Shown here in pieces: positions 33,416 through 64,000 of a stretch of DNA of 64,000 nt. The translations under genes and the position numbers were made by a program. Positions within the stretch are counted from its first letter, which is position 1; the number at the start of each line of letters is the position of its first letter. The notes beneath the pieces are model-generated. The model made no database searches. It saw only the letters and a list, made by a program, of their open reading frames with translations, and was not told the origin of the DNA. The DNA comes from Leucoraja erinacea (Eukaryota): NCBI RefSeq assembly GCF_028641065.1, contig NC_073400.1, positions 32,798,001 to 32,862,000 on the forward strand. Direction: 5' to 3'.

Positions 33416-34138
33416 GCTGCCAGAGGAGGCCTTCTCTAATTTCAGGTAGTCCTTGCTTTCTCCCTTCTTCCCCTCCCCCTTCCCGGCTCTCCCACACAGC
33501 CTACTGTTGCCGCCACTTCCTTTCTTGTTACTGCCCCGCCAACATCAGTCTGAAGAAGGGTCTCGACCCAAAACGTCACATACTCCTTTTCTCCATAGAT
33601 GCTGCCTCACCCGCTGAGTTTCTCCAGCATTTTTTGTCTACTGCCAGAGGAGGTAGTTGAGGCTAGGACTATCCCAACGTTTAACAAACAGTTAGACAGG
33701 TACATCGATAGGACAGGTTTGGAGGGATTTGCACCACACGCTGGCAGGTGGGACTAGTGTAGCTGGGACATTGTTGGCCAGTGTGGGCAAGTTGGGCTGA
33801 AGGGCCTGTTTCCGTGCTGTATCTATGACTGGTGTAGCTGGGACATTATTGGCCAGTATGGGCAAGTTGCGCCGAAGGGCCTGTTTCCACACTGCATCAC
33901 TCTATGACTCTGTTTAAGATTTTGACCTACACCCAGAAGTGTACAATGTTGAAATTGCTTTTACTGGAAGTGGTGTTTTGGCATTTGGGTAGCAGCCTGA
34001 TCGAGCTATTGATTAACTAGATATTTGCGGTAAATAAAACCAGTGGCCTCACTGACAAAATATTGATCAGCATCCGTTTCAAAACCATTCCTCGCGAATC
34101 CTCCGTCGTCTTTCACAGCCCGAGGAAAAGATTGAGGA

Positions 34139-34211
34139 ATGAACATGAATGCAAGGGTGAAAAGCAGAGAAGTCATCGTCCTGCTTTACCTGTGCGGACA
34201 GGTGAACTGCT
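34139..34211 (+). CDS. Unassigned Gla-domain protein copy A, exon 1 (putative signal peptide)
   Basis: MNMNARVKSREVIVLLYLCGQVNC-T|gtaagt. 73 nt; the phase-1 donor matches the phase-1 acceptor of the Gla exon. Hydrophobic core is short. Confidence 0.65.
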
Positions 34212-34754
34212 GTAAGTAACTGTAAACACCATTTAAGGTAGACAAAAATGCTGGAGAAACTCAATTGGATGAGGCAGCATCTGTGGAGCGAAGGAATAGG
34301 TGGCGTTTCGGCCCTCCAGCCTTTGACCTCATTGAAACATATAGAACAGTCTTCTTGTTCAAGAAGGAACTGCAGATGCTGGAAAATCGAAGGTACACAA
34401 AATTGCTGGAGAAACTCAGCGGGTGCAGCAGCATCTATGGAGCGAAGGAAATAGGCAACGTTTCGGGCCGAAACCCTTCCGGGTTTCGGCCCGAAACGTT
34501 ACCTATTTCCAGAAGGGTTTCGTCCCGAAACGTTGCCTATTTCCTTCGCTCCATAGATGCTGCTGCACCCGCTGAGTTTCTCCAGCAATTTTGTGTACCT
34601 TAGAACAGTCTTCTTGGGTATGGCGTGCACAGCCTAAAGTTGTCGGACAACTTGTTCTATTTGATCTTATTTGATTGTGCACACTGAGTTGATTGCATTC
34701 GCCGAAACAGGGCGGACCAGGTGAAGATTGCAATCTCCCACCCCATATAGTATA

Positions 34755-35179
34755 GAAACATAGAAATTAGGTGCAGGAGTAGGCCATTCAGCCCTTCGAG
34801 CCTGCACCGCCATTCAATATGATCATGGCTGATCATCCAACTCAGTATCCCGTACCTGCCTTCTCTCCATACCCCTTGATCCCCTTAGCCACATCTAACT
34901 CCCTCTTAAATATAGCCAATGAACTGGCCTCAACTGCCCTCTGTGGCAGAGAGTTCCAGAGATTCACCACTCTCTGTGTGAAAAAAGTTCTTCTCATCTC
35001 GGTTTTAAAGGATTTTCCCCTTATCCTTAAGCTGTGACCCCTTGTCCTGGACTTCCCCAACATCGGGAGCAATCTTCCTGCATCTAGCCTGTCCAACCCC
35101 TTAAGAATTTTGTAAGTTTCTATAAGATCCCCTCTCAATCTCCTAAATTCTAGAGAGTATAAACCAAGTCTATCCAGTC
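34755..35179 (-). mobile_element. CR1 3' fragment present only in duplicate copy A (intron 1)
   Basis: Copy B reads atatagtata-atgaaagg uninterrupted (about 56381-56398). TATA flanks both sides in copy A. Confidence 0.88.
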
Positions 35180-35551
35180 TATAATGAAAGGCCTGGATAG
35201 AGTGGATATGGAGAGGATGTTTCCACTATTGGGAGAGTCTAGGACTAGAGGTCACAGCCTCAGAATTGAAGGACGTTCCTTTAGGAAGGAGATAAGGTGG
35301 AATTTCTTTAGGGTGGTGAATCTGTGGAATTCTTTGCCACAGACGGCTGTGGAGGCCACAAGTCAGTGGATATTTTTAAGGCAGAAATAGATAGATTCTC
35401 GATTAGTGCGGGTGTCAGGGGTTAGGGGGAGAAGGCAGGAGAATGGGGTTGGGAGGGAGAGATAGATCAGCCGTGATTGAATGGCGGAGTAGACTCGATG
35501 GGCCGAATGGCCTAATTCTGCTCCTATCCCTTCTGACCTTTCCTCCCTCAG

Positions 35552-35712
35552 TGTTCGTGCAGAAGCCGGTGGCCAACAGCTTCCTGTCGCGGGTACGCAG
35601 AGCTAACGCTGGTCTGGAGGAGTTGCTAGGCAGCAACCTGGAGAGGGAATGCTTCGAGGAGATCTGCTCCAAGGAAGAGGCCCTGGAGCATTTCGAAGAT
35701 GATCAAAAAACG
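35552..35712 (+). CDS. Gla protein copy A, exon 2 (propeptide and Gla domain)
   Basis: cag|[53 protein letters not shown]|gtgagg. F-16, A-10, L-6, R-4, R-1 carboxylase/furin pattern and LERECxEExC motif. 161 nt, phase 1-0. Confidence 0.93.
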
Positions 35713-36641
35713 GTGAGGCACAGAGCCATAGAGCGTGGAAACAGGCCCTTCGGCCCATCTCTCTCATGTACACGGCTCTCAGAAATGTTGCTATGGTCAC
35801 AAGGAATAGGTGTAGAATTAGGCCATTCGGCCCATCAAGTCTACTCTGCTATTCAATCATGGCTGATCTATCTCTCCTAATCCAATTCTCCTGCCTGCTC
35901 CCCATAAACTCTGACACCCGCACTAATCAAGAACCTATCGAGTCGTAGAGTCATAGAGTGATACAGTGTGGAAACAGGCCCTTCGGCCCACCTTGCCCAT
36001 GCCGTCCAACATGTCCCAGCTACACTAGGCAGACTGAGTGGTGCAGTGTGGAAACAGGTCCTTCGGCCCAACTTGCCCACACTGGTCAACATGTCCCAGC
36101 TACACTAGTCCCACCTGCCCATGTTTGGTCCATATCCCTACAAACCTGTCCTATCCATGTACCTGTCTAACTGTTCTTAAATGTTGGGATAGTCCCTGCC
36201 TCAACTACCTCCTCTGGCAGCTCGTTCAACACACCCACCACCCTCTGTGTGGGAAAATAGATTCCTATTAAATCTTTTCCCTTTCACCTTGGACCTATGT
36301 CCTCTGGTGCTCTGGTTTTCTCCCACATTCCAAAGGGTTGTAGGTTAATTGGCTTCTGTAAATTGTCTCCTTAGTGTGTGTAGGACAGTAGGTAGTTAGT
36401 GTAGGTGGTGTCATGATGTATGGGTGATCCTTTGGCCATAAGGAATAGTAGAATGAGGCCATTCGGCCCATCAAATCCACCACCATTCAATCATGGCTGA
36501 TCTATCTCTTCTCCTAACCCCATTCTCTTGTCTTCTCCCCATAATCTCTGCCACTTGAACTAAACAAGAATAGAGAGATTAAACGAGTACTTACCAGTAC
36601 GAAGTTTGATCTGTATTTTATGAGGAGTTACGATGAGGGAT

Positions 36642-36677
36642 TACGTGAAGAACCCACCCAGTGCGCAGGCGCGGCAT
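36642..36677. repeat. DIRS inverted terminal repeat (partner at 41313-41348)
   Basis: tacgtgaagaacccacccagtgcgcaggcgcggcat is the exact reverse complement of 41313-41348. Confidence 0.93.
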
Positions 36678-36793
36678 ACTTCCAAGCAGCGGTGTGGAAT
36701 CACAGGTAGACACAATATATGAAGTAAAGATAGTAAAGATTAAAGAGACATCAGCTCGAGTTTGATCCATATACTGAGGGTGGGAGCGGAGGG

Positions 36794-36906
36794 CACGTAA
36801 TCCCTCATCGTAACTCCTCATAAAATACAGATCAAACTTCGTACTGGTAAGTACTCGTTTAATCTCTCTATTTTACTTCGGAGTCACGTGAGTGACTACG
36901 TGAAGA
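36794..36906. repeat. DIRS internal complementary region (ICR)
   Basis: First part is the reverse complement of the left terminus (about 36569-36647). Second part is the reverse complement of the right terminus (about 41339-41375). The two are joined through ATT. Confidence 0.93.
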
Positions 36907-37066
36907 CTTCAAAGATCTGTGATTTCAAACCGTGTAACAGCTATATCACTCGCTGCCGAAGTTATCGAGGGAGGAAGTGGTATCTAAAGACCAACGAATC
37001 TGTTTGTTTTTTGAAAACAAAAATGTTTATTAAACAATAACAAAAATAGCTCCCTTGGGCTTAAAA

Positions 37067-37991
37067 TTATAAGTTTGCAGTTTCTAAAATTTTCTCTGCA
37101 AACAAGTCTTTCTGCATCAGCGGTTTATGATAAAATATCCGGAACGTTGATTCCCTTGACCATCCTGCTGTGCTTAGGATGTGGTCGATGGGAACATCCA
37201 TCCGTTCCGCAGCTGATGTAGATGCTGCCCTGATAGAATGGGATTTAAAAACATCAGTGTTAATCCCTGCAGCTTTCAGGACCTGTTTTTAACCACCTGG
37301 ATATAGTTTGGCTGGTTACCCGTCCAAAAGGCTTCTTGTGGCTGACCCATAAGGCTTTTTCACTCCCTCTAAGTGTATGGGTTGTGTCTACATAGTTGTA
37401 TAAATGGGTCACTACACAGAGCCTAGGTTCTGGAGGGTAGGCCCGGAAGATTAATGGCGAGTTGGACATACCTGGCCTGGTTTGTTTAACTAACCCCGGC
37501 ATAGTAAATGTGATGCAGTCTGGGGTAGTTACCATGTTGTCCAGTCGTAGTTGATGTAGTGACTGGACCCTTTGTGCAGAGACGAGCGCCATTAGCATGA
37601 TGGTCTTGAGCGTGGATTGCTCTAGACTGAGGGATCCCACCGGTGGCCATCCTCTGAGGTGTGATAGCACGACACTTATATCCCATACATGGGTATACCT
37701 GGGTGTAGGGGGTTTGATATTGTAAATCCCCTTGAGGAGTTTTATGACTAGCGGGTGGGACCCGATGCTATGGTGTCCTGTTGGCATAAGATAAGCAGAC
37801 AGGGCACTTCGTGCTGCATTGACGGCACTGTAGCTCATCTTCTGGTCATGGTGTAAATGGGCCAGGAACTCCAACACGTCCGTGATTGTGGCTTTCTTAT
37901 ACGACGTCCCTGCATCCAAGCAGCACTGCTCCCATTTCTTGATGTATGTCAGGTACTGCTTCTTGGTTGAGTCTCGCAGGGATGCCGACAT
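37067..37991 (-). CDS. DIRS ORF3 tyrosine recombinase, with one +1 frameshift in an A-run at about 37286-37290
   Basis: R.ST..QY and SAQRV in the listed ORF. After removing one A it continues WLKQVLKAAGI...HSIRAASTS...AGWS..STF..FY..., giving the R, HxxR, W and Y catalytic set and ending at TAA 37067-37069. Confidence 0.92.
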
Positions 37992-38045
37992 GGTGGTGAT
38001 AGTTCTTTCTGATAAACCCAGTTCCTGGTAAGGCCTGGTTAAAAC

Positions 38046-39980
38046 CTACAAACCAGGAGTTTTAATTTTTTTATGGCATGGATGACTTATGCCGGATACT
38101 GGGTGAGTCAATAGCTGTGGATGACTGTTAAAGACCATAGGTGACTCTACCACCATGTCGTGAAAGACTGGGAACCATGGTTGGGTAGGCCAGTCGGGTA
38201 CGACCAAAATACCTGAAGCAGAGTCTGACTGTATTTTCTGGAGTACCCGGCTGATGAGGCAGAAGGGAGGGAAAGCATAGAAGAAGAAATTTCCCCAATC
38301 CAGCGTGAAGGCATCTACCGCTGCTGCCTCTGGGTCTGGTTCCCAAGCCACATACATGGGTAACTGGTGATTCAATCTAGACGCGAACAAATCTATATCT
38401 GGCGTTCCATATTGCTTAGTAATTTTTGCAAATATTTTTGGATGTAACATCCATTCGATGTTATCATTGAATTTTCGTGACCTGGTGTCTGCCACTGTGT
38501 TTAGCTTACCTGGTAGATAGGCAGCTGATAGCCAAATATGTCTCTCGACACACCATTGCCAGATTATATTAGCCAATTTGTCGCATGATACTGATTTTAT
38601 GCCACCCATGTGCTTGATGTAGGCCACCACCGTTGTGTTGTCAATCATTAACCTAACATGCACGTGCTGCATATTGGATGAATATGCTTTTAGCCCATAA
38701 AAGGCGGCCAGCATTTCCAAATAATTTATGCCTAGTGAGTGTAGTAGCGATGTCTCGAGATTAGTCCATCTGCCACCTGTGCTGGATATAGAGTTAGTAG
38801 CTCCCCAGCCTAAAGCACTGGCATCAGTCGTGATGACTATGTTAGGATTAGTGATGGCAATGGGACTGTAACTGTGCCAAATATTTTCTGACCACCACTG
38901 AAGTTCTGATATGGCCTCAGTGGGTAAATACATTGTTCGGTCATAATGCCCCCTATTTTGGTGTAATGAATGTGTCCTTGCTCTTTGTAAATTTTGGTAA
39001 TGCAAGGGTCCATATTGTGCAGCTGGAAATGCTGCTACAATACTCCCAATGACTCTGGCAACATGCCGGATCCTTGGTTGTGTATTTGCGATTAAATTGT
39101 TGCATGCTTGCGCTAATGCAACCTTTTTATCCCTTGGCAGAGTAACAGTCATGTGGGTAGAATCGATGGTGAAGCCTAGATAGTCCATATTAGTTGACGG
39201 CTTCAATTTCGATTTATCTGGATGTAGAACAAATCCCAACGTTTCAAGGAGTTGTTTAGTAGCTGAAACTGCTGTGACAGCTAGTTCCTTGGTTCTCCCC
39301 ATTATGAGAATATCGTCCAGATAAGCCATGACTAGGTATTTTTGTTCTCTCAATATTTTCATGGCTACTTTAAGAATTTTGGTAAATAATCTGGGGGCTG
39401 TTGTTAACCCATTGGGCAGTGCTCTATATTGCCATAGTTGCCCCATCCAGATAAATTTCAGGTATCTGAAATGATCCTTGTGAATGGGTACTAAATAGTA
39501 AGCATCTTTAATGTCTATGCTTGCCATGAAGTATCCCTTGGAGATCAGTTGTCTGGCAGTGACAAATGTCTCCATTTTGAAATGTTGATACTCAACAGAT
39601 TTATTTAGTGATGTTAGATCAATGATGATGCGACATCCACCATCTTTCTTGGTTTTAATGAATATATTTGATACAAATTCCAATGGCTCATGTCTGGTCC
39701 TTTCAATGACTCCTTTAGACATGAGCCTATCTAGTTCAGCCTGTCCTTTCTCCTTCTCTAGTTGAGTGGGAAGGAATACCCTTTGGGGTATATGCTGAAC
39801 CGGCGGTATTATGCCTGTTTTAAATTCAATTTTATATCCACTAATACTGTTGAGTATGTATTGGTTGTTAGTGATAGTACACCAAACATGTTTAAATAAT
39901 CGTAAACGCCCTCCTGTTAGTAAAACACCCTTGGTTATTGTATGTTGACAGGAACCAGACCCACCTACCTCCATGTTCAT
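38046..39980 (-). CDS. DIRS ORF2: reverse transcriptase, RNase H and methyltransferase-like domain
   Basis: GGRL, SIDIKDAY, LPNGL..APR.FTK, YLDD (RT); TDAS..GWG, INYLE, DN, N..AD (RNase H); DLFAS, FPPF, PDWPTQPWF (MT-like). 644 aa. Confidence 0.96.
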   Translation of the reverse strand: MNMEVGGSGSCQHTITKGVLLTGGRLRLFKHVWCTITNNQYILNSISGYKIEFKTGIIPPVQHIPQRVFLPTQLEKEKGQAELDRLMSKGVIERTRHEPLEFVSNIFIKTKKDGGCRIIIDLTSLNKSVEYQHFKMETFVTARQLISKGYFMASIDIKDAYYLVPIHKDHFRYLKFIWMGQLWQYRALPNGLTTAPRLFTKILKVAMKILREQKYLVMAYLDDILIMGRTKELAVTAVSATKQLLETLGFVLHPDKSKLKPSTNMDYLGFTIDSTHMTVTLPRDKKVALAQACNNLIANTQPRIRHVARVIGSIVAAFPAAQYGPLHYQNLQRARTHSLHQNRGHYDRTMYLPTEAISELQWWSENIWHSYSPIAITNPNIVITTDASALGWGATNSISSTGGRWTNLETSLLHSLGINYLEMLAAFYGLKAYSSNMQHVHVRLMIDNTTVVAYIKHMGGIKSVSCDKLANIIWQWCVERHIWLSAAYLPGKLNTVADTRSRKFNDNIEWMLHPKIFAKITKQYGTPDIDLFASRLNHQLPMYVAWEPDPEAAAVDAFTLDWGNFFFYAFPPFCLISRVLQKIQSDSASGILVVPDWPTQPWFPVFHDMVVESPMVFNSHPQLLTHPVSGISHPCHKKIKTPGL

Positions 39981-41206
39981 TTTTGGGAGCGTCTTCGTTG
40001 GTGGGTTTGGCTCGCGGGCGTTTTTGTTGGTGCTGTCACGGGGCGGCGTATCTTCCCACGGCTCCGCTCTGGGCCCCTCTCTAAAAAAGAGCTATGGGGG
40101 TAGTGAGGAGCGGTAGCCAGGCTTTCACCAGTCCGGTATCTGCTGGTGGATGCCGAGGGGTGCTGCCAACTGGGTGTCTTCGCCCTGCTCGGCGCTGGTC
40201 CTGCCCTCATGAGGCCTACTGGTTTGGCCGCCGCTTCAAGTTCTTTGAGCCTTTTTCCCAGGTCAGCCCCAAATAGCAGCGCCTCCTTCTCTTGCGCAGG
40301 AGCTTTGCAAAGCCCTGCATATTTGGGGTTGAGGGCAGGCCTGATGTTTTCCCGCCTTAAGTTGTTCATCTCAAAGTGGGTGTTACACATCAGAGCTAGG
40401 ACATCCTGTTGAGGTGTAGTGAGGTCCGTGTGCTCTGCGGACCGAGCAAAGGCGGTGATGGCAGCGGTATGGAGCTTCAGGATGCGCTGCATTTTCAGCT
40501 CTTGGCTCCTAATATGTTGGCCTAGCTGGCTCCATATCTGGCCATTGACGGTCTTAACGCGCAGCGCCTCACAGTTCTCGGGTGCCGTGTATGTCTCGAG
40601 AGCCTCCTGGATTACTTTTTCCTGGAGAGGCTTGTTGGATAGCCGGTTTATGCTGGCCGCCATTTTTGGGGTCAGCATTCTCCCGGCCTTCGGGGGCGCC
40701 GCATACCGGTTGACCACACCCAGCAGCTCTTCTTCCTCCTGCTCCCCTGGCATACTTGTGCAGTCGTCCGCCTGCCCCTGCGATAAGCCAGCCCAGTCCT
40801 GGCCTCCCTTGCTGACCTCAAATAAGGAGGGAGCAGAGGGGTAAGGTGACGGTTTGGAGGAGGCCTCAGCCCGTCCTCCCTGGAGATGCCTTGCCTGCAT
40901 CTCCTGCTCGAACATTTGTTCGAGGAGCTGCCTCATGCAGCTTAAGCGGCTGTCTCCCCGTTTAGCCGGTGGAGAATGTTCCCGTTCCTCCGACGAGTCA
41001 GAGACCACCGGCCGGTCCGTTTTACGGGTGGATTTCCTCCCTGTGCGAGGTGTTGAAGTCGGCAGCACAGGGAGCGGCTCGGGGTCGGGTGTACGGGAGC
41101 GCTGAAAATGCTCCTCTGCCGCCGGTGGCTGCCGCCCAGATGTTGACCCTTCCTCGGGGGGAGTTTGGCAGGCAGTCCGTTTGCTTTGTCGCTTGCGGGT
41201 AGCCAT
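39977..41206 (-). CDS. DIRS ORF1 (gag-like)
   Basis: Uninterrupted ORF from the first ATG (MATRKRQ...) with P.NCE.L, LRRE.I and LFG.DL segments. Its stop overlaps the pol ATG. Confidence 0.85.
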   Translation of the reverse strand: MATRKRQSKRTACQTPPEEGSTSGRQPPAAEEHFQRSRTPDPEPLPVLPTSTPRTGRKSTRKTDRPVVSDSSEEREHSPPAKRGDSRLSCMRQLLEQMFEQEMQARHLQGGRAEASSKPSPYPSAPSLFEVSKGGQDWAGLSQGQADDCTSMPGEQEEEELLGVVNRYAAPPKAGRMLTPKMAASINRLSNKPLQEKVIQEALETYTAPENCEALRVKTVNGQIWSQLGQHIRSQELKMQRILKLHTAAITAFARSAEHTDLTTPQQDVLALMCNTHFEMNNLRRENIRPALNPKYAGLCKAPAQEKEALLFGADLGKRLKELEAAAKPVGLMRAGPAPSRAKTPSWQHPSASTSRYRTGESLATAPHYPHSSFLERGPERSRGKIRRPVTAPTKTPASQTHQRRRSQK

Positions 41207-42353
41207 GCTAGCGACTCTGTAATACAAAAGACTCACTTACCTGAGGTCTTGTCTTTAACCTGCAGCTGGAGAGCCTGGCTCCAGCTGCCGCCGCTGTTGC
41301 ACTGCTGGCGTAATGCCGCGCCTGCGCACTGGGTGGGTTCTTCACGTAGTCACTCACGTGACTCCGAAGTAAAATCTATCTATAGTAGACACAAAATGCT
41401 GGAGTAACTCAGTAGGACTGGCAGCATCTCTGGAAAGAAGGCATGGGTGACATTTAGGGTCGAGACCCTTCTTCAGTCAGCGGAGTGGGTGGGACAGAGA
41501 TAGAATGTAGTCGGAGACAGTCAGACTGGTGGGAGAACTGGGAAGGGGGAGGGAATGGAGAGAGAGGGAAAGCAAGGGCTACTTGAAGTTAGAGAAGTCA
41601 ATGTTCATACCTCTGGGGTGTAAGCTGCCCAAGTGAAATATGAGGTGCTGTTCCTCCAATCTATCTATCTCTGGTTGGCACGGACTCGGTGGGGCCGAAG
41701 GCCTTGTTTCTATGCTGCGTTTAGGAAGAACTGCAGATGATGGAAAAATCGAAGGTAGACAAAAATGCTGGAGAAACTCAGCGGGTGAGGCAGCATCTAT
41801 GGAGGGAAGGTCTCGTCCCAAAACATAGAAAATAGGTGCAGGAGTAGGCCATTCGGCCCTTCGAGCCTGCATCACCATTCAATATGATCATGGCTGAACA
41901 TCCAACTCAGTATCCTGTACCTGCCTTCTCTCCATACCCCCTGACCCCTTTAGCCACAAGGGGCCACATCTAACTCCCTCTTAAATGTAGCCAATGAACT
42001 GGCCTCAACTACTTTCTGTGGCAGAGAATTTCAGAGATTCACTACTCTCTGTGTGAAAATGTTTTTCTCATCTCGGTCCTATTCCTTCACTCCATAGATG
42101 CTGCCTCACCCGCTGAGTTTCTCCAGCATTTTTGTCCACCTTCTGTTTCCATGCTGTATCATTCAACTCAACTAAACTGGCTCTGGGGCAGTCGGTAGGA
42201 GGCTGCCAACCAAGGAATTCACATGAGGGATTAAACACTCCGACGCACAGTTTCATATTACCCGAGCTTCCAGCAACATGCAGGTCTCCTGAATAACCCA
42301 GCGAGACTGCTTCTTCATGTATCATAAATGAAAAGGTTTTTTTTTTTTTGCAG

Positions 42354-42378
42354 GAGAACTTCTGGAAATGGTATAAAG
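42354..42378 (+). CDS. Gla protein copy A, exon 3 (25-nt aromatic stack exon)
   Basis: poly-T-gcag|ENFWKWYK-G|gtatgt. This is the 25-nt phase 0-1 FWxxY exon typical of coagulation-type Gla genes. Confidence 0.9.
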
Positions 42379-43300
42379 GTATGTGTGTTTATTGGTCGCA
42401 TTCAACACACAGGTTAGTTATTAATGATCCTCACAGTCTGAAGTGGACTCGTGCATTCATTAAGATAACAGGCTGTGAAACACGGGGCATCATATTAATG
42501 TGCTCGTTACTGATTGTCATCGTTTTGAGGCATCTGTCGGGAGCGGATGGGAAGGTGGGATAACATAGAATGGGCGATCGCCGGTCGGCGTGACATCGAT
42601 GGGCCGAAGGGCCTGTTTCTGTGCTGTATCTCTAAACTAAACCAAACTTAATTAAATCACAGAACGATACTATATCGATTCGGTGGGCCGAAGGGCCTGT
42701 TTCCATGCTGTACCCTTTCAATCAATCAGTCTTGCTATTGAGGGAGTGCAGCGTAGGTTCACCAGGTTAATTCCCGGGATGGCGGAGCTGACATATGATG
42801 AAAGAATGGATTGACTGGGCTTGTTTTCACTGGAATTTAGAAGGATGAGAGGCGATCTTTTAGAAACATACACAATTCTTAAAGTATTGGACAGGCTAGA
42901 TGCAGGAAAAATGTTCCCGATGTTGGGGGAGTCCAGAACCAGGGGTCACTGTTTAAGAATAAGGGGTCGGCCATTTAGGACTGAGACGAGGAAAAATGTT
43001 TTCACCCAGAGAGTTGTGAATCTGTGGAATTCTCTGCCCCAGAAGGCAGTGGAGGCCAATTCACTGGATGTTTTCAAGAGAGAGTTAGATTTAGCTCTTA
43101 GGGCTAACGGAATCAAGGGATATGGGGCGTAAGCAGGAACGGGGTACTGATTCTGGATGATCAGCCATAATCATATTGGATGGTGGTGCTGGCTCGAAGG
43201 GCTGAATGGCCTACTCCTGCACCTATTGTCTATGTTTCTAACCCTCCAACCCCTGCCTGTTCCAGTATCTGTCCCAATGCCACCTCTACTGTTCCTGCAG

Positions 43301-43429
43301 GTTCCCCACTGGTGGAAAATGTTCCAGATGAGCATGGTGCCCATGCCAAGCCAGCGCTAAACTCCACACTGTCGACAAACACCACAGAGGAAGGGGGCGG
43401 ACCGACCGTGTCCCCTCCGCCTGAGCGGG
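43301..43429 (+). CDS. Gla protein copy A, exon 4 (S/T/P-rich linker)
   Basis: cctgcag|SPLVENVPDEHGAHAKPALNSTLSTNTTEEGGGPTVSPPPER-G|gtgagt. 129 nt, phase 1-1, two N-glycosylation sequons, unique sequence among repeats. Confidence 0.75.
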
Positions 43430-44529
43430 GTGAGTCTCCCACACTGATTCACACAAACACACACAGAGTGCTGGAGTAACTCAGTAGGTCAGGCAGCATC
43501 TGTGGAGAACGTGGACAGGTGACTTATCAGGTTAGCATCCTCTTCAGAATGGGCCGTTTGAGTCTGAAGAAGGGTCCTGACCCTGAAATATCACTGTGAA
43601 ACGTCACCTATCCATGCTCTCCACAGATGCTGCCTGACCCGCTGAGTTACTCCAGCACTCTGTGAAACGTCACCTATCCAAGCTCTCCACAGATGCTGCC
43701 TGACCCGCTGAGTTACTCCAGCACTCTGTGAAACATCACCCATCCATGTTCTCCACAGATGCTGCCTGACCCGCTGAGTTATGGTGCAGCAGCATCTATG
43801 GAGCTAAGGAAAGAGGCAACGTTTCGGCACGAAACCCTTCTGGAAATAGGCAACGTTTCGGCCCGAAACGTTGCCTATTTCCTTAGCTCCATAGATGCTG
43901 CCTGACCCGCTGAGTTACTCCAGCACTCTGTGTAACGTCACCCATCCATGTTCCCCACAGATGCTGCCTGACCCGCTGAGTTACTCCAGCACTCTGTGAA
44001 ACGTCACCCATCCATGTTCTCCACAGATGCTGCCTGACCCGCTGAGTTACTCCAGCACTCTGTGAAACGTCACCTATCCATGTTCTCCACAGATGCTGCC
44101 TGACCCGCTGAGTTACTCCAGCACTAGTCATTGTTTGGTTTGATGTTTAGTATTATCTGATCGGATTGGATCGAATGCAAAACAAATATTCTCGCTGAAC
44201 CTTGGTCCACAATCACAATCATACTTTATTAGCCAAGTATGTTTTGCAACATACGAGGAATTTCATTTGCCGTACAGTCATACCAATAAAACGCAACAGA
44301 ACGCACAAAACACATCCACCACAGTGACTCCTCCACATTCCTCACTATGATGGTAGGTGAAAAAAAAACAACCTAACCAACAACAGTAAACGTGATTATG
44401 AATAAACTTAAACCTAGTTTGGAAAAAATGCAACAATTGTGTTAGTACAATAATGGTTTAACATTGCAAATTTGGTCTTTAATTGTTGCCTGTAAAGATT
44501 CTGACTTGCATCTTTCATCCCGCCACCAG

Positions 44530-44687
44530 CTTTCTCCTGCAGTAAACGTGATGTGAAGTTCATCCTCACGTTGGGAAAGCAAGTCCTTGAAATGCAAGAG
44601 CAAGACATTGAGTATCGCCGGAAACGAATTGAACATAAATCGAGACTGGTCAACACAATACAGAAATTCTTACACGATTCAGCCTGA
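44530..44687 (+). CDS. Gla protein copy A, exon 5 (C-terminal helical region and stop)
   Basis: Branch-like ctgac, pyrimidine tract, ccag|(A)FSCSKRDVKFILTLGKQVLEMQEQDIEYRRKRIEHKSRLVNTIQKFLHDSA*. Phase 1. The five exons sum to 546 nt (181 aa plus stop). Confidence 0.7.
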
Positions 44688-44694
44688 TCGCATT

Positions 44695-45226
44695 AGAAAC
44701 ATAGAAATTAGGTGCAGGAGTAGGCCATTCGGCCCTTCGAGCCTGCACCGCCATTCAATATGATCATGGCTGATCATCCAACTCAGTATCCCGTACCTGC
44801 CTTTTTCTCCATACCCTCTGATCCCCTTAGCCACAAGGGCCACATCTAACTCCCTCTTAAATATAGCCAATGAACTGGCCTCAACTACCCTCTGTGGCAG
44901 AGAGTTCCAGAGATTCACCACTCTCTGTGTGAAAAAAGTTCTCCTCATCTCGGTTTTTAAAGGATTTCCCCCTTATCCTTAAGCTGTGACCCCTTGTCCT
45001 GGACTTCCCCAACATCGAAACAATCTTCCTGCATCTAGCCTGTCCAACCCCTTATGAATTTTGTAAGTTTCTATAAGATCCCCCCTCAATCTCCTAAATC
45101 TCTAGAGAGTATAAACCAAGTCTATCCAGTCTTTCTTCATAAGACAGTCCTGACATCCCAGGAATCAGTCTGGTGAACCTTCTCTGCACTCCCTCTATGG
45201 CAATAATGTCCTTCCTCAGATTTTGT
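44695..45226 (-). mobile_element. CR1 3' fragment inserted 7 nt after the Gla copy A stop codon
   Basis: Copy B reads tgatcgcattgatcaaactg without it; ATT is repeated at both junctions. Confidence 0.88.
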
Positions 45227-46869
45227 ATTGATCAAACTGATTCCATATTTACACCACTATGTAATTAGAATGCAAACTACATCAACATATTCAGTTTGGA
45301 GTAAACTGAAACATTAAAATGTCACCTTTGCTATTAAAAGCTCAGCACTGTGTAACATTCCAGTCAATCAGTCACATTGGAATAATACTTGTCACACTTG
45401 GTGTACAGGACATAGTTTGTGTCACAGAAATTAAACGGCAATCATATATCATGAAATACAGACTTGTTTATTTTGTGATGTGAGGTGGTGGTTTGGGCAT
45501 TTCCCACTGTCCATCTCTCAGTGGCTTTGAGTGGTGGTGGTGGTCAAAGGTGTTTGGTGATGGTGATCCTTCAACCCCAGCTGTCCATCAACAGCTTGCG
45601 ATGCTCAAAGTCTGAAATAAAAATAGTTCTCCTTGCCAGGAGGTAGTGATCCATGTCAAATCAGATAGCCTGGCCATTACTGTCATCGCTGACCAACCAA
45701 CCACAGTATGGTCCTGACCTCCTATCCACCTCATCGGAGACCCTTGGAATATCTTCAATCAGACGTAAAAAGCCGGAGTAACTCAGCGGGCCAGGCAGTA
45801 TCTCTGGAGAGAAGGAATGGGTGATGTTTCGGGTCGAGACCCTTCTTCAGACCCAGTCTGAAGAAGTGTCTCAACGCAAATCATTCTGTCTGAAGAAGGG
45901 TCTCATCCCGAAACATCACCCATTCCTTCTCTCCAGAGATGTTGCCTGTATTTTTGTGTCGATCTTCAACTTAAACCAGCATCTGCAGTTCCTTCTTACA
46001 CACTTCAATCATACTTTACCTTGCACTAAACGTTATTCACTTTATCCTGTCTCTGAACACTGTGGACGGCTCGATTGGAATCACGAACAGTCTTTCTGCT
46101 GACTGGATAGCACGCAACAGGAAAGTCCTGGGATGTCAGGACTTTCATATGAAGAAAGACTGGATAGACTCGGCTTGTACTCGCTAGAATTTAGAAGATT
46201 GAGGGGGGATCGTATAGAAATTTACAACATTCTAAGGGGTTGGACAGGCTAGATGCAGGAAGATGCAGCATTTCGTTGTCTCTGTACTGTACACTGACAA
46301 TGACAATTAAAATTGAATCTGAATCTGAATCTGAATCTGAAGATTGTTCCTGATGTTGGGGAAGTCCAGAACAAGGGGTCACAGTTTAAGGATAAGGGGG
46401 AAATCTTTTAGGACTGAGATGAGAAAAACATTTTTCACACAGAGAGTAGTGAATCTCTGGAATTCTCTGCCACAGAATGTAGTCGAGGCCACAGATCATT
46501 GGCTATATTTAAGAGGGAGTTAGATGTGGCCCTTGTGGCTAAAGGGATCAGGGGGTATGGAGAGAAGGCAGGTACGGGATACTGAGTTGGATGATCAGCC
46601 ATGATCATATTGAATGGTGGTGCAGGCTCGAAGGGCCGAATGGCCTCTACTCCTGTACCTGTTGTGTATTGTCTGTCTGTCTGAGACACTGTGTCTGAAG
46701 AAGGGTCTCGACCTGAACCGCCCCTATCCCTTCTCTCCACAGACGCTGCCTGTCCCACTGAGTTACTCCAGCACTTTGTGCCTGTACCAGTTTAACCCAG
46801 CACCTGCAGTTCCTTCCTACACCTGGCGCAGAGATGATTTGTGCGGCCATTGGCCGGCCTGAGCCTCAG

Positions 46870-52651: not shown

Positions 52652-53464
52652 ATGGAGGCGGTCAGGAAGGAGCTACTGGTCTTTATGACGCAGAAGTATT
52701 TAAGGATGAACCGAAAGAAAGGTTTTTCTAAGTCTCGCTGCTTGCAGCTTGCTGCTGAAATCCTAGCTGTCGACTCCGGGCTGAAGCCTTCCTTCTTGTT
52801 TGATTATTGTGCATCAAATGCAGAACAGATCCAGAACTATGTCCAGGAGCTGTGGAAAACTGGGCTTCTCTCCGAACATCTACACGTCCTCAGCATACAA
52901 GACAACATCTTAATAACAAACTTGAACAGAACCATCAGACACTTGGAACGAACACTGCAGGGAGATGGTGTCCCAGTCATTGATGTTTCATTGCACAGGA
53001 AGACCCCACAACTGGCAGAGTCCTGGGTGACACAGCAGGTCGAGGCCCAAGTGGACATTATTTGGAAGCACCTGAAATCACAGGTAATTCATGCAGAGAT
53101 GAGCACACCAGGTGTTGTTACCACCAGTGAGATTTTCTCACCCGAGTGGAATCTGTGTACAGTGTTTGGGTTTCTCCTTGGCTTCCCTGCTTCATACTGG
53201 TTTGATTTTAACCAGAGTTTTGAGAACTGTCTGGGCATGACTCAACTTCGGGCTTTCTCTGTCTCTGCTATTTGTCCCAGAATCACTGAGAACCTTAAGC
53301 ATCAGATGTACTCATTCAGTGTCCCCGAAAACCTTTATTTGGATTTACAGAGCATGCTGGAGATTTGGTGGAGGAATCTACAATCAGATTTTAACAAGCA
53401 GTCCTCTTTCTCTGATCTCTGCATCGCCACAGAGGTAGTCTGCCTGCCGGGGATTACCCTGTAA
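52652..53464 (+). CDS. C1orf74: UPF0739 protein C1orf74 homolog, single coding exon, 270 aa
   Basis: LAAEILAV..GLKPSFLFDY, WNLCTVFG.LLG.P..Y, NCL, YSFSVP and F.DL motifs. Acceptor tttag at 52635 and AATAAA at 53514. Lies downstream of IRF6 on the same strand, as in human. Confidence 0.93.
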   Translation: MEAVRKELLVFMTQKYLRMNRKKGFSKSRCLQLAAEILAVDSGLKPSFLFDYCASNAEQIQNYVQELWKTGLLSEHLHVLSIQDNILITNLNRTIRHLERTLQGDGVPVIDVSLHRKTPQLAESWVTQQVEAQVDIIWKHLKSQVIHAEMSTPGVVTTSEIFSPEWNLCTVFGFLLGFPASYWFDFNQSFENCLGMTQLRAFSVSAICPRITENLKHQMYSFSVPENLYLDLQSMLEIWWRNLQSDFNKQSSFSDLCIATEVVCLPGITL

Positions 53465-55771: not shown

Positions 55772-55844
55772 ATGAACATGAATGCACGGGTGAAAAGCAG
55801 AGACGTCATCGTCCTGCTTTACCTGTGCGGACAGGTGAACTGCT
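55772..55844 (+). CDS. Gla protein copy B, exon 1
   Basis: MNMNARVKSRDVIVLLYLCGQVNC-T|gtaagt; two substitutions versus copy A. Confidence 0.62.
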
Positions 55845-56765
55845 GTAAGTAACTGTAAACACCATTTAAGGTAGACAAAAATGCTGGAGAAACTCAGTGG
55901 ATGAGGCAGCATCTTGGAGCGAAGGAATAGGTGGCGTTTCGGCCCTCCAGCCTTTGACCTCATTGAAACATATAGAACAGTCTTCTTGTTCCAAAAGGAA
56001 CTGCAGATGCTGGAAAATCGAAGGTACACAAAATTGCTGGAGAAACTCAGCGGGTGCAGCAGCATCTATGGAGCGAAGGAAATAGGCAACGTTTTCGGGC
56101 CGAAACCCTTCTGGGTTTCAGCCCGAAAACATTACCTATTTCCAGAAGGGTTTCGTCCCGAAACGTTGCCTATTTCCTTCGCTCCATAGATGCTGCTGCA
56201 CCCGCTGAGTTTCTCCAGCAATTTTGTGTACCTTAGAACAGTCTTCTTCTTGTGTATGGCGTGCACAGCCTAAAGTTGTCGGACAACTTGTTCTATTTGA
56301 TCTTATTTGATTGTGCACACTGAGTTGATTGCATTCGCCGAAACAGGGCTGACCAGGTGAAGGTTGCAATCTGCCACCCCATATAGTATAATGAAAGGCC
56401 TGGATAGAGTGGATATGGAGAGGATGTTTCCACTATTGGGAGAGTCTAGGACCAGAGGTCACAGCCTCAGAATTGAAGGACGTTCCTTTAGGAAGGAGAT
56501 AAGGTGGAATTTCTTTAGGGTGGTGAATCTGTGGAATTCTTTGCCACAGACGGCTGTGGAGGCCACAAGTCAATGGGTATATATGAAGGCAGAGATAGAT
56601 AGATTCTTGATTAGTACGGGTGTCAGGGGTTAGGGGGAGAAGGCAGGAGAATGGGGTTGGGAGGGAGAGATAGATCAGCCGTGATTGAATGGCGGAGTAG
56701 ACTCGATGGGCCGAATGGCCGAATTCTGCTCCTATCCTAAGGCCTTCTGACCTTTTCTCCCTCAG

Positions 56766-56928
56766 TGTTTGTGCAGAAGCCCGGTGGCCAACAGCTTCCT
56801 GTCGCGGGTACGCAGAGCTAACGCTGGTCTGGAGGAGTTGCTAGGCAGCAACCTGGAGAGGGAATGCTTCGAGGAGATCTGCTCCAAGGAAGAGGCCCTG
56901 GAGCATTTCGAAGATGATCAAAAAAACG
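56766..56928 (+). CDS. Gla protein copy B, exon 2, with two +1 homopolymer insertions (assembly error or pseudogene)
   Basis: Identical to copy A except TTC>TTT, an extra C (aagcccggt) and an extra A (A7 run). Nearby intron also has scattered extra bases. Confidence 0.8.
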
Positions 56929-59154
56929 GTGAGGCATCAGCAGCAGAGGCATATGAGCGTGGAAACACAGGCCCTTCGCCCATCTCTCTCATGTACACGG
57001 CTCTCAAGAAATGTTGCTATGGTCACAAGGAATATAGTGTGTAGAATTAGGCCATTCGGCCCATCAAGTCTACGCTGCTATTCATCATGGCTTGATCTAT
57101 CTCTCCCTCCTAATCCAATTCTCCTGCCTGCGCCCCCTAATCTCTGACACCCGCACTATTCAAGAACCTATCGAGTCGTAGAGTCATAGAGTCATACAGT
57201 GTGGAAACAGGCCCTTCGGCCCAACTTGCCCACACTGGTCAACATGTCCCAGCTACACTAGTCATTGAGTGATACAGTGTGGAAACAGGCCCCTCAGCCC
57301 CACCTGCCCACACCTGCCCACATGTCCCAGCTACACTAGTCCCCACCTGCCCATGTTTGGTCCATATCCCTACAAACCTGTCCTATCCATGTTAAACAAA
57401 AAAGCTGGAGAAACTCAGCGGGTGCAGCAGCATCTATGGAGCGAAGGAAATAGGCAACGTTTCGGGCCGAAACCCTTCTGGAAATAGGCAACGTTTCGGG
57501 CCGAAACCCTTCTTCAGACTGGGCGGGGGTGGGCGGGGACAAGAAAGGGAAAAGGAGGAGGAGCCCGAAGGCTGGGGGATGGGAGGAGACAGCAGGGGGG
57601 CTGAGGAAGGGGAGGAGACAGCAACGACTAACAAAATTGGGAGAATTCGATGTTCATGCCCCCGGGATGCAGACTCCCCAAACGGAATACGAGGTGCTGT
57701 TCCTCCAATTTATCCACTGTATGACTCTATGACTCTACGACTCGATAGGTTCTGTCCATGTCCTATCCATGTACCTGTCTAACTGTTTCTTAAATGTTGG
57801 GATAGTCCCAGCCTCAACTACCTCCTCTGGCAGCTCGTTCCATACACCCACCACCCTTTGTGTGAAAATGTCACCCCTCAGATTCCTATTAAATCTTTTC
57901 CCTTTCACCTTGGACCTATGTCCTCTGGTGCTCTGGTTTTCTCCCATATTCCAAAGGGTTGTAGGTTAATTGGCTTCTGTAAATTGTTTCCTTAGTGTGT
58001 GTAGGACAGTAGGTAGTTAGTGTAGGTGGTGTCATGATGTATGGGTGATCCTTTGGCCATAAGGAATAGTAGAATGAGGCCATTCGGCCCATCAAATCCA
58101 CCACCATTCAATCATGGCTGATCTATCTCTCCCTCCTAACCCCATTCTCTTGTCTTCTCCCCATAATCTCTGCCACTTGAACTAAACAAGAATCTATCTA
58201 TAGTAGACACAAAATGCTGGAGTAACTCAGTAGGACTGGCAGCATCTCTGGAAAGAAGGCATGGGTGACATTTTGGGTCGAGACCCTTCTTCAGTCAGGA
58301 GAGTGGGTGGGACAGAGATAGAATGTAGTCGGAGACAGTCAGACTGGTGGGAGAACTGGGAAGGGGGAGGGAATGGAGAGAGAGGCAAAGCAAGGGCTAC
58401 TTGAAGTTAGAGAAGTCAATGTTCATACCTCTGGGGTGTAAGCTGCCCAAGTGAAATATGAGGTGGTGTTCCTCCAATCTATCTATCTCTGGTTGGCATG
58501 GACTCGGTGGGGCCAAAGGCCTTGTTTCTATGCTGCGTTTAAGAAGAACTGCAGATGATGGAAAAATCGAAGGTAGACAAAAAAAAACTCAGAGGGTGAG
58601 GCAGCATCTAGAAACATAGAAACATAGAAATTAGGTGCAGGAGTAGGCCATTCGGACCTTCGAGCCTGCATCACCATTCAATATGATCATGGCTGAGCAT
58701 CCAACTCAGTATCCTGTACCTGCCTTCTCTCCATACCCCCTGATCCCTTTAGCCACAAGGGCCACATCTAACTCCCTCTTAAATATAGCCAACGACCTGT
58801 GGCCTCAACTACTTTCTGTGGCAGAGAATTCCAGAGATTCACCACTCTCTGTGTGAAAAATGTTTTTCTCATCTCGGTCACCTATTCCTTTGCTCCATAG
58901 ATGCTGCCTCACCCGCTGAGTTTCTCCAGCATTTTTGTCTACCTTCTGTTTCCATGCTGTATCATTCAACTCAACTAAACTGGCTCTGGGGCAGTCGGTA
59001 GGAGGCTGCCAACCAAGGAATTCACAGGAGGGATTAAACACTCCGACGCACAGTTTCATATTAGCCGAGCTTCCAGCAACATGCAGGTCTCCTGAATAAC
59101 CCAGCGAGACTGCTTCTTCATGTATCATAAATGAAAAGGTTTTTTTTTTTGCAG

Positions 59155-59179
59155 GAGTACTTCTGGAAACGGTATAAAG
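59155..59179 (+). CDS. Gla protein copy B, exon 3
   Basis: gcag|EYFWKRYK-G|gtatgt, 25 nt. Confidence 0.85.
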
Positions 59180-60130
59180 GTATGTGTGTTTATTGATCGC
59201 ATTCAACACACAGGTTAGTTATTAATGATCCTCACAGTCTGAAGTGGACTCGTGCATTCATTAAGATATTATATTATATACCATTATATGGTTATAACAG
59301 GCTGTGAAACACGGGGCATCATATTAATGTGCTCGTTACTGAATTGTCATCGTTTTGAGGCATCTGTCGGGAGCGGATGGGAAAGTGGGATAACATAGAA
59401 TGGGCGATCACTGGTCGGCGTGACATCGATGGGCCGAAGGGCCTGTTTCTGTGCTGTATCTCTAAACTAAACCAAACTTAATTAAATCACAGAACGATAC
59501 TATATCGATTCGGTGGGCCGAAGGGCCTGTTTCCATGCTGTATCCTTTCAATCAATCAGTCTTGCTATTGAGGGAGTGCAGCGTAGGTTCACCAGGTTAA
59601 TTCCCGGGATGGCGGAGCTGACATATGATGAAAGAATGGATTGACTGGGCTTGTTTTCACTGGAATTTAGAAGGATGAGAGGGGATCTTTTAGAAATATA
59701 CACAATTCTTAAAGTATTGGACAGGCTAGATGCAGGAAAAATGTTCCCGATGTTGGGGAAGTCCAGAACCAGGGGTCACTGTTTAAGAATAAGGGGTCGG
59801 CCATTTAGGACTGAGACGAGGAAAAACGTTTTCACCCAGAGAGTTGTGAATCTGTGGAATTCTCTGCCACAGAAGGCAGTGGAGGCCAATTCACTGGATG
59901 TTTTCAAGAGAGAGTTAGATTTAGCTCTTAGGGCTAACGGAATCAAGGGATATGGGGAGGAAGCAGGAACGGGGTACTGATTGTGGATGATCAGCCATAA
60001 TCATATTGGATGGCGGTGGTGGCTCGAAGGGCTGAATGGCCTCCTCCTGCACCTATTGTCTATGTTTCTATCCCTCCAACCCCTGCCTGTTCCAGTATCT
60101 GTCCCAATGCCACCTCTACTGTTCCTGCAG

Positions 60131-60259
60131 GTTCCCAACTGCCGGAAAATGTTCCAGGTGAGCATGGTCCCCATGCCAAGCCAGCGCTAAACTCCACACT
60201 GTCGACAAACACCACAGAGGCAGGGGGCGGACCGACCGTGTCCCCTCCGCTTGAGCGGG
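60131..60259 (+). CDS. Gla protein copy B, exon 4
   Basis: SQLPENVPGEHGPHAKPALNSTLSTNTTEAGGGPTVSPPLER-G|gtgagt, 129 nt. Confidence 0.72.
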
Positions 60260-61310
60260 GTGAGTCTCCCACACTGATTCACACAAACACACACAGAGTG
60301 CTGGAGTAACTCAGTAGGTCAGGCAGCATTTGTGGAGAACGTGGACAGGTGACTTATCAGGTTAGCATCCTCTTCAGAATGGGCCGTTTGAGTCTGAAGA
60401 AGGGCATTGACCCTGAAATATCACTGTGAAACGTCACCTATCCATGTTGTCCACAGATGCGGCCTGACCCGCTGAGTTACTCCAGCACTCTGTGAAATGT
60501 CACCTATCCATGTTCTCCACAGATGCTGCCTGACCCGCTGAGTTACTCCAGCACTCTGTGAAATGTCACCTATCCATGTTCTCCACAGATGCTGCCTGGC
60601 CCACTGAGTTATGGTGCAGCAGCATCTATGGAGCTAAGGAAAGAGGCAACGTTTCGGCATGAAACCCTTCTGGAAATAGGCAACGTTTCGGGCCGAAACC
60701 CAGAAGGGTTTCGGCCCGAAACGTTGCCTATTTCCTTAGCTCCATAGATGCTGCCTGACCCGCTGAGTTACTCCAGCACTCTGTGAAACGTCACCCATCC
60801 ATGTTCTCCACAGATGCTGCCTGACCCGCTGAGTTACTCCAGCACTCTGTGAAACGTCACCCATCCATGTTCTCCACAGATGCTGCCTGACCCGCTGAGT
60901 TACTCCAGCACTAGTCATTGTTTGGTTTGATGTTTAGTATTATCTGATCGGATTGGATCGAATGCAAAACAAATATTCTCGCTTGGTCCACAATCACAAT
61001 AATACTTTATTAGCCAAGTATGTTTTGCAACATACGAGGAATTTCATTTGCCGTACAGTCATACCAATAAAACGCAACAGAACGCACAAAACACATCCAC
61101 CACAGTGACTCCTCCACATTCCTCACTATGATGGTAGGTGAAAAAAAGCCAACCTAACCAACAACAGTAAACGTGATTATGAATAAACTTAAACCTAGTT
61201 TGGAAAAAATGCAACAAATGTGTTAGTACAATAATGGTTTAACGTTGCAAATTTGGTCTTTAATTGTTGCCTGTAAAGATTCTGACTTCCATCTTTCATC
61301 CCGCCACCAG

Positions 61311-61468
61311 CTTTCTCCTGCAGTAAACGTGATGTGAAGTTCATCCTCACGTTGGGAAAGCAAGTCCTTGAAATGCAAGAGCAAGACATTGAGTATCGCC
61401 GGAAACGAATTGAACATAAATCGAGACTGCTCAACACAATACAGAAATTCTTACAAGGTTCAGCCTGA
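61311..61468 (+). CDS. Gla protein copy B, exon 5
   Basis: (A)FSCSKRDVKFILTLGKQVLEMQEQDIEYRRKRIEHKSRLLNTIQKFLQGSA*, 158 nt, frame and stop retained. Confidence 0.68.
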
Positions 61469-63139: not shown

Positions 63140-63216
63140 AGGGGGCGCATGCGCCGGGCCCGTCCCCTGCCCCACAATGCCCCGCGCCCAGCGGCGGCTA
63201 CAGGGACACGGTGAGT
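63140..63216 (+). promoter_or_regulatory. Second copy of the putative C1orf74 promoter and first exon
   Basis: GCGCATGCGC at 63145-63154, CCCACAATGCCCCGCG, donor at 63211; paralogous to 46870-46946. Confidence 0.55.
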
Positions 63217-64000
63217 CGTAGCCCCCCCCCCCCCGGGTAATGGACCCCGTCACCATGGAGAACGCCCCCCCCCCCTCACACCCCCGTCACCATGGAGACG
63301 GCCCCCCCCCTCCCCCCCCTTCCGTCAACCATGGAGACGGCCCCCTCCCCCTCCCCCCCCCCGTCACCATGGAGACGTCCGCCCCCTCCCACCAGATCAC
63401 CCCCTCCGTCCAACATGGAGACGGCCCCCTCCCCCCCCACCCCACCGTCACCATGGAGAGACGGCCCCTCCCCCTCACCCACCTTCAACCTAAACCATGG
63501 AGACGGCCCCCCCCCCCTCACCCCCCCGTCAACCATGGAGACGGCCCCCATCCCCCTCACCCCCCCCGTTTCACCATGGAGGGACGGCCCATCCCCCTCA
63601 CCCCCCCCTCGGTCGCCATGGAGACGGCCCCCTCCCCCTCACCCCCCCGTCGCCATGGAGACGGCCCCCTTCCCCCTCACCCCCCCGTCACCATGGAAGA
63701 CGGCCCCTCTCCCCTCACCCCCCCACGTCACCATGAGACGGCCCCAACCCCCCCTCACCCCCCCGTTCACCATGGAGACGGCCCCCCCCCCCTCACCCCC
63801 CCGTCACCACCATGGAGACGGGCCCCCCTCCCCCTCCCCTCCCCCCCCGTCACCATGGAGACGGCCCCCTCCCTCCCTCACCTCTCCCCCCTTCACCATT
63901 GTGCGACTTCCCGCCTCCCCGCCCCCCTCACCCCCCCGTCACCAGGGAGACGTCCCCCCTCCCCCTCACCCCCCCCCCCGTCCAGCCATTTAGACGGGGC

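Follow-up and report, generated by a model that had tools for sequence, protein, structure and literature searches.

A chondrichthyan family of vitamin K-dependent-type proteins joining a Gla head to a predicted coiled-coil tail, encoded beside C1orf74 in the little skate

A 64,000-nucleotide stretch of the genome of the little skate, Leucoraja erinacea (contig NC_073400.1, positions 32,798,001 to 32,862,000, forward strand; hereafter the window, numbered from its first letter), carries a five-exon gene for a short protein that joins a signal peptide, a propeptide and a Gla domain to a linker and a predicted coiled-coil tail. This combination of Gla head and predicted coiled-coil tail is a new architecture among vitamin K-dependent proteins, for which a RefSeq model already exists under a misleading name. 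The same design recurs across cartilaginous fishes, and we are highly confident that both the membership of this Gla-coil family and the design of its proteins are real.

The coding sequence is an intact open reading frame (ORF) of 181 residues, spliced from five exons, with GT..AG ends at all four introns and phases 1, 0, 1 and 1. The parts of the gene are as follows.

34055..34211, forward strand: exon 1, covered in full by a contig that joins it to 35552; coding part 34139-34211, 73 nucleotides (nt)
35552..35712, forward strand: exon 2, 161 nt, propeptide and most of the Gla domain, recognised by Pfam Gla, a contig and invariant columns
42354..42378, forward strand: exon 3, 25 nt, aromatic stack FWxxY, seen in contig letters
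43301..43429, forward strand: exon 4, 129 nt, serine/threonine/proline linker with two N-glycosylation sequons, from the ORF and contigs
44530..44687, forward strand: coding part of exon 5, 158 nt, 52-residue tail and stop codon, with the junction of exons 4 and 5 in two contigs
44688..45621, forward strand: probable 3' untranslated region (UTR), from a motif scan only, 3' end unmapped

Exon 1 includes at least 84 nt of 5' UTR, and its ATG at 34139 has an in-frame TGA upstream at 34133; a second ATG at 34145 corresponds to the start position of the orthologues. The motif scan gave candidate poly(A) signals at 45313, 45333 and 45430 (ATTAAA) and at 45616 (AATAAA). A rival exon 4 acceptor at 43266, combined with donors at 43394 or 43433, leads to a stop codon and was rejected. 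The product equals RefSeq XP_055511047.1 (record P0003) of the little skate letter for letter, automatically named "coagulation factor X-like". The five exons, phases, splice sites and ORF proposed in a first-pass annotation of the window hold.

Hydropathy predicts a signal peptide at residues 1-24, with a basic n-region, a nine-residue hydrophobic core (2.79) and a V-x-C end. The propeptide that follows carries F-16, A-10, L-6 and an RxRR site, the mature chain beginning after RVRR. Within the mature Gla region, 11 Glu lie among the first 45 residues (at 6, 7, 14, 16, 19, 20, 25, 26, 29, 32 and 38), together with a Cys17-Cys22 loop and FWxxY at 40-44, and exon 2 alone matches Pfam Gla with an expectation value (E) of 3.5e-13 and 49.9 bits (cut-off 27). 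For the complete product, Pfam returned Gla only and nothing else above noise. Similarly, hydropathy revealed no transmembrane segment, since the best 19-residue window scores 1.41 within the signal and 0.34 after the Gla domain. No EGF or protease exon was found in 164 kilobases (kb) around the gene by tblastn with the EGF, coil-2 and protease parts of six relatives; four of these queries had no match, and the other two gave one weak, repeat-like match each. The first-pass annotation had listed a Gla domain with 11 Glu, the C17-C22 loop, FWxxY, a linker with NST and NTT sequons and a 52-residue helical tail, a description that holds. Its statement that EGF, kringle, protease and transmembrane parts are absent holds by Pfam, tblastn, the spliced contigs and 13 species, and its view that the architecture belongs to no recognised family stands as well, Pfam finding Gla only and the databases holding automatic names only.

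Seven distinct sequencing runs were examined for transcripts, and spliced contigs were present in two of them (X1 and X14, both of one study and recorded as probable RNA only). A 610-nt contig of X1 extends from 34055 to 34211 and continues directly at 35552. In both runs, contig letters lead from exon 2 across exon 3 to the start of exon 4 (43301), and the final 4 nt of exon 4 are followed by exon 5. All four predicted junctions are thereby seen, in contigs from an allele that differs from the genomic gene described above (copy 1). Splicing of exon 3 to EGF, protease or transmembrane exons, which the first-pass annotation had named as the outcome contrary to its model, does not appear in these contigs, where exon 3 leads to exon 4 and then to exon 5. 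By its length, the X1 contig ends about 34 nt past the stop codon; its letters were read over the first 26 nt of exon 5. Two differences count against taking these contigs as products of copy 1 itself. Exon 2 of the transcript differs from copy 1 at 13 sites, some of which agree with copy 3 (see below), and exon 4 is missing 54 internal nt, in frame and with no splice-type ends, which leaves a linker 18 residues shorter; from the letters, this deficit is read as a shorter allele. Two further sites differ in exon 1 and equal copy 2. The gene is expressed, but not provably from copy 1, because the transcript differs from that copy in exons 2 and 4. As a separate observation, the X1 transcript has Trp at mature position 3 (35608-35610), adjoining Gly4, where all three genomic copies have Ala. 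One 152-nt piece of X13 lies unspliced on 43268-43419. Exon 1 was uncovered in X13, X2 and X24, and exon 4 in X3 and X12, none of which was counted as evidence.

The design of signal, propeptide, Gla domain, linker and coil is present in at least 13 chondrichthyan species, chimaera included.

Species with the full design: Leucoraja, Amblyraja, Rhinoraja, Pristis, Hemitrygon, Narcine, Heterodontus, two Scyliorhinus species, Rhincodon, Chiloscyllium, Heptranchias and Callorhinchus

An isoform from Cetorhinus has the head and linker, with the tail absent. A profile built from the tails of 11 proteins matches 17 of the 167 proteins collected, all of them chondrichthyan; held-out shark tails score between E 1e-20 and 2e-17, and tails left out one at a time between 3e-17 and 3e-6 in a small database, the chimaera tail reaching 2.4e-7. 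In a profile search, 26 of 7387 candidates pass E 1e-8, and the non-chondrichthyan ones match the Gla part only. The design was not found in other vertebrates among the matches listed, and because these were the best 150 of 782 in one search, its absence outside chondrichthyans is unproven. All 12 of the scanned Gla-coil proteins without EGF have Gla as their only Pfam domain. The elasmobranch members form one clade, supported at 99/98 in a first tree and 100/99 in a second. The chimaera protein is left unplaced by its Gla region; holding it with the family gives p=0.62 in the approximately unbiased (AU) test, and it has the tail in common with the others. According to the accessible part of PMC6238376, chimaeras and elasmobranchs separated about 420 million years ago. 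The gene seen at a single locus in the first-pass annotation is correct as a gene, and the picture of a local oddity gives way to that of an old, chondrichthyan-wide family. A full-length match to a characterised family, which that annotation had named as contrary to its reading, did not emerge; the full-length matches carry automatic names only.

The tail is predicted to be a coiled coil because a conserved seven-residue hydrophobic repeat coincides with one long helix. AlphaFold models residues 135-180 as a single helix, with a predicted local distance difference test score (pLDDT) of 92-97 over 141-180. Across 11 tails, hydrophobic pairs recur every seven residues (141/142, 148/149, 155/156, 162/163, 169/170 and 176/177), with a third, often polar, position between them, and the periodicity peaks at 3.5 (1.41) as compared with 3.6 (0.99) and 3.67 (0.43). 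Outside skates, only 8-16 of the 52 residues are identical and the heptad pattern is kept. A broad two-residue hydrophobic seam of this kind is typical of coils of three to five chains. In a PDB sequence search, two of the 51 matches were not Gla proteins, and both are designed helical barrels (E 2e-4 and 7e-3). A prediction of a three-tail complex, with the alignment unused, gave a score of 0.03 and a mark of 0.32, which speaks neither for nor against assembly. The ESM Atlas returned no named family for the tail (best 0.86), and Foldseek gave no match at E<=0.001, 16 of its 17 rows being Gla domains. An amphipathic lipid-binding helix is disfavoured, as the periodicity favours 3.5 over 3.6-3.67, and a cationic antimicrobial tail was rejected because charge is not conserved (net charge -1 to +5).

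At the other end of the protein, F-16, A-10, L-6, R-4, R-2 and R-1 of the propeptide are invariant in all 12 aligned rows, as are Glu 6, 7, 16, 20, 25, 26 and 29, Cys17 and Cys22 of the head. The propeptide positions F-16, A-10 and L-6 and the basic site have established roles in carboxylase recognition and cleavage. Invariance of the carboxylase site, the cleavage site and seven calcium-ligand Glu suggests that selection probably acts on both carboxylation and the binding of calcium. Members carry 9-13 Glu per head, the range given for clotting-type Gla domains in the accessible part of PMC9669250. Linkers are between about 20 and 130 residues long, that of Rhinoraja containing a threefold repeat, and the skate linker is disordered in the AlphaFold model (pLDDT 30-43).

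The skate genome contains three matches to the tail, one of them frameshifted, all within a duplicated IRF6-C1orf74 block. Copies 2 and 3 had been missed in the first-pass annotation, as had a retroelement in intron 2 (below); its model of copy 1 is correct.

55772..61468, forward strand: copy 2, with exons 55772-55844, 56766-56928, 59155-59179, 60131-60259 and 61311-61468

Copy 2 is frameshifted by two insertions of one base each in exon 2. Copy 3 lies about 52 kb downstream, beyond the window, and is intact (XP_055511046.1). The block 24000-55421 recurs beyond a 100-base gap at 64300 with about 97% identity, carrying the IRF gene and C1orf74 along, a pattern that, in the assembly sequence, suggests unmerged haplotypes; for this reason copies 1 and 3 may be alleles. 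Substitutions set copy 2 apart from both of the others, and it may be a genuine tandem pseudogene. The duplication was observed to span 55462-63556 of the window and G000:C24:32874037-32899335, and within it the Gla gene and the C1orf74 promoter occur in a further tandem copy. Two RefSeq models, XP_055511036.1 (P0001) and P0006, join C1orf74 at about 53083 to exons of copy 2 (window 52652-61468); if supported by reads, these joins would favour copy 2 as a genuine tandem copy that yields read-through transcripts. Between copies 1 and 3, exon 2 has 9 differences in 161 nt and exon 5 has 10 in 158, as compared with 2 in the 227 nt of the other exons. Set against a flanking divergence of 1.5% in the introns, the 19 differences in the 319 nt of exons 2 and 5 have a binomial p=7e-7, these two exons having been picked after the data were seen. 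About 14 of 181 residues differ between the two proteins (7 in the Gla head, 7 in the tail and 1 in the signal), and pN/pS (0.042/0.029) is not significant (Fisher p=0.43). The excess in exons 2 and 5 is no more than a hint, at the level of sequence, of diversification.

For the function of the product, we hold in even balance the proposal that it would be a secreted, oligomeric protein, binding phosphatidylserine-exposing membranes through several Gla heads with the help of calcium. By established Gla biology, the signal would be cleaved after residue 24, the propeptide would direct gamma-carboxylation, furin would cut at RxRR and calcium would drive folding of the head. The tail is predicted to assemble three to five chains, and the flexible, glycosylated linker to let the heads reach the membrane together, so that avidity would offset the weak affinity of a single head. 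More speculatively, bound oligomers might coat or mark activated thrombocytes, dying cells or vesicles, and such a coat might damp the assembly of clotting complexes or aid clearance. A multivalent phosphatidylserine binder is favoured because the protein has no enzyme and no receptor-binding domain, and clustering of heads is the simplest use of a coil. Several observations weigh against this proposal. Elasmobranch members carry Gly at the fourth position of the membrane-inserting loop, which is Phe in clotting factors; Glu14 is not conserved, and copy 3 lacks both Glu14 and Glu19; and the FWxxY stack is degraded in six shark sequences. Because of these changes, some members may bind membranes poorly. 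In addition, AlphaFold models the Gla head with low confidence (pLDDT 46-64, from a 12-row alignment), and several residues in the core of the coil are small or polar (G145, Q152, R159 and K166).

These polar core residues would suit a selective heterotypic coil, and an alternative that we consider unlikely, yet worth keeping in view, is that the tail pairs with a different protein (a receptor, a carrier or a complement regulator) and makes the product a one-headed bridging ligand like Gas6 or protein S. A second Gla-coil type known from rays (P0019, P0172) could be such a partner. However, no partner was identified, tblastn across the same 164 kb found no second coil type near the skate locus, and the broad hydrophobic seam fits higher-order self-assembly. 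The uneven divergence of copies 1 and 3, with its p=7e-7 and roughly 14 altered residues, as well as the further changes in transcripts and the fast divergence between species, could instead reflect a host-defence protein of plasma or mucus, whose head would recognise the anionic surfaces of microbes or viruses, which the oligomer would agglutinate or tag. We judge this rather improbable, since pN/pS is not significant, exons 2 and 5 were chosen post hoc, gene conversion or relaxed constraint yields the same patchiness, and the net charge of the tails leaves no conserved cationic peptide.

It is improbable that the protein acts as a chaperone for calcium phosphate, or regulates mineralisation, in calcified cartilage or plasma, as MGP, osteocalcin and GRP do. 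The Glu content of the heads, the restriction to cartilaginous fishes and the loss of membrane-binding features in some sharks would be consistent with it, but the head is of the clotting-factor type, with a separate propeptide and standard exons 2 and 3, and the catshark gene identifier is absent from the readable cartilage-transcriptome supplements of PMC13188829, a weak point as those files are small and use transcript identifiers. Finally, the idea that the gene is a factor X paralogue in truncation or decay, or an artefact of gene prediction, and has no function of its own, to which the automatic names, the frameshifted copy and the duplicated block beside an assembly gap might lend colour, is largely refuted and very improbable given the spliced contigs, the conserved heptad, the same design in chimaera and elasmobranchs, and at least nine other Gla exons on other contigs.

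The closest relatives appear to be protease-less Gla-EGF proteins, found in rays, sharks, the tunicate Clavelina and other records, 12 of which, tunicate ones among them, have a characteristic last EGF in common.

Secreted protease-less Gla-EGF(n) records, with automatic names only: P0017, P0010, P0154, P0158, P0142, P0026 and P0028

The signal and propeptide of P0158 are close to those of the Gla-coil family, and this record may come from another lineage. The last-EGF motif was found in none of the plain Gla-coil proteins and is carried by P0155 as a fused model; in the ESM Atlas, the Gla-EGF sister retrieved generic Gla-EGF clusters only. Two shark gene models (P0155 and P0020) merge the Gla-coil gene and a second Gla gene into one, the Heptranchias model including EGF domains, and a stingray pair has consecutive accessions; together, these suggest tandem neighbours. 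The first tree comprised 63 rows and 64 columns and left deep nodes open; in the second, of 40 rows, the signal region was added, 23 rows were dropped and one was swapped. Reference rows in the trees were labelled by reading their sequences, not from database names. The second tree unites 18 chondrichthyan rows, of Gla-coil and Gla-EGF proteins, with support of 86/82; a placement with factor X-like rows does not occur in the best tree and is 23 log units worse. With moderate confidence, and by sequence comparison, we propose that the Gla-coil gene probably arose by duplication of a protease-less Gla-EGF gene in which linker and coil exons replaced the EGF exons. The first-pass annotation had suggested an exon-shuffled gene; its likely parent, at moderate support, is a protease-less Gla-EGF gene and not a clotting protease. 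Against this origin, the factor X-like grouping is not rejected (AU p=0.159), the key node is unstarred, and the Gla-EGF-protease P0022 falls near the Gla-coil/Gla-EGF group.

A second type of Gla protein with a short coil was observed in the rays Mobula and Hypanus (P0019, P0034 and P0172); it is linker-less and has the head of the Gla-EGF gene. P0019 and P0172 match the tail profile at E 5e-4, and this type is possibly a second origin of the coil tail. Taking the family as a whole, we tentatively raise the possibility that cartilaginous fishes keep, at IRF6-C1orf74, an unrecognised vitamin K-dependent branch composed of an old chordate protease-less Gla-EGF protein, known from tunicates as well, and fast-evolving Gla-coil multivalent phosphatidylserine binders, in which a pre-clotting role of Gla domains in clearance or defence would be preserved.

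The gene lies between two neighbours and holds a mobile element in intron 2.

14474..~26420 (end approximate), forward strand: upstream neighbour, IRF5/6-type gene
52652..53464, forward strand: downstream neighbour, coding exon of C1orf74 (DUF4504; Pfam E=9.7e-73)
36572..41372, reverse strand: DIRS-type retroelement with three ORFs (419, 644 and 243 residues)

The placement between IRF6 and C1orf74 made in the first-pass annotation holds for C1orf74, by its DUF4504 match, and for an IRF5/6-type gene upstream; from known sequence and synteny we take the latter to be IRF6, which presumably adjoins C1orf74 in human. A probable non-coding first exon of C1orf74 would end at 46940, at a donor site read from the sequence. 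Runs of N lie upstream of, within and near the IRF gene (1896-2083, 10682-11333, 17417-17705, 17813-17955 and 22572-22753), and its second DNA-binding exon was found in the downstream duplicate only. The retroelement has RVT_1 (E=1.9e-19) and integrase SAM-like, tyrosine recombinase (E=9.7e-7) domains; it is present in copy 1 only, with an empty site in copies 2 and 3, and the insertion looks recent.

A full-text literature search that included accession and gene identifiers, and covered few subscription papers, returned no description of the Gla-coil design. The accessible parts of PMC9643190, PMC9669250, PMC3141003, PMC7564532, PMC8006282, PMC13188829 and PMC4768133 do not mention it, and a term search of the main text of PMC11979771, a catshark tissue atlas, gave no match.

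To our knowledge, the clotting-type Gla proteins of vertebrates are usually taken as a short, closed list, and an older Gla protein of lamprey or hagfish plasma is said to exist. A family extending from chimaeras to skates adds to the vertebrate list a Gla design that has no enzyme, EGF, LamG or membrane anchor, and that genome annotations obscure under labels of the "factor X-like" kind. The protease-less Gla-EGF relatives, which tunicates have too, bear on the roles of Gla domains before clotting evolved. If the product is indeed an oligomeric phosphatidylserine binder, it would be the small, natural equivalent of probes based on annexin V or lactadherin, and a candidate for regulating haemostasis or clearance in sharks.

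Among known systems, F7, F9, F10, protein C, protein Z and prothrombin have, like the skate gene, a signal, a propeptide with a carboxylase site, a Gla domain, a 25-nt aromatic-stack exon and phases 1, 0 and 1, and the best PDB sequence match is factor X (E 1.8e-23); in contrast to these clotting factors, the skate protein has no EGF, kringle or protease, carries a linker and a predicted coiled coil, has Gly at loop position 4 and is encoded at a separate locus. PRRG1-4 are likewise short Gla proteins without a protease, but hydropathy after the Gla domain is 0.34 in the skate protein as against about 3 in PRRG-type rows, and it has no PPxY motif. The Gla-EGF(n) proteins (P0017, P0010 and P0142) have a similar signal and propeptide and are the probable neighbour gene in sharks and stingrays, whereas EGF repeats with the characteristic last EGF stand in place of linker and coil, and they were not found at the skate locus. 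MGP, osteocalcin and GRP/UCMA, present in sharks according to the accessible part of PMC8006282, are also small secreted vitamin K-dependent proteins; they differ in Gla motif and exon layout, and no long coiled coil is described for them in the accessible text. The best functional analogy is with Gas6 and protein S, secreted, non-enzymatic Gla proteins that bind phosphatidylserine, from which the skate protein differs in having none of their four EGF or two LamG domains, about one quarter of their size and a separate clade in the trees.

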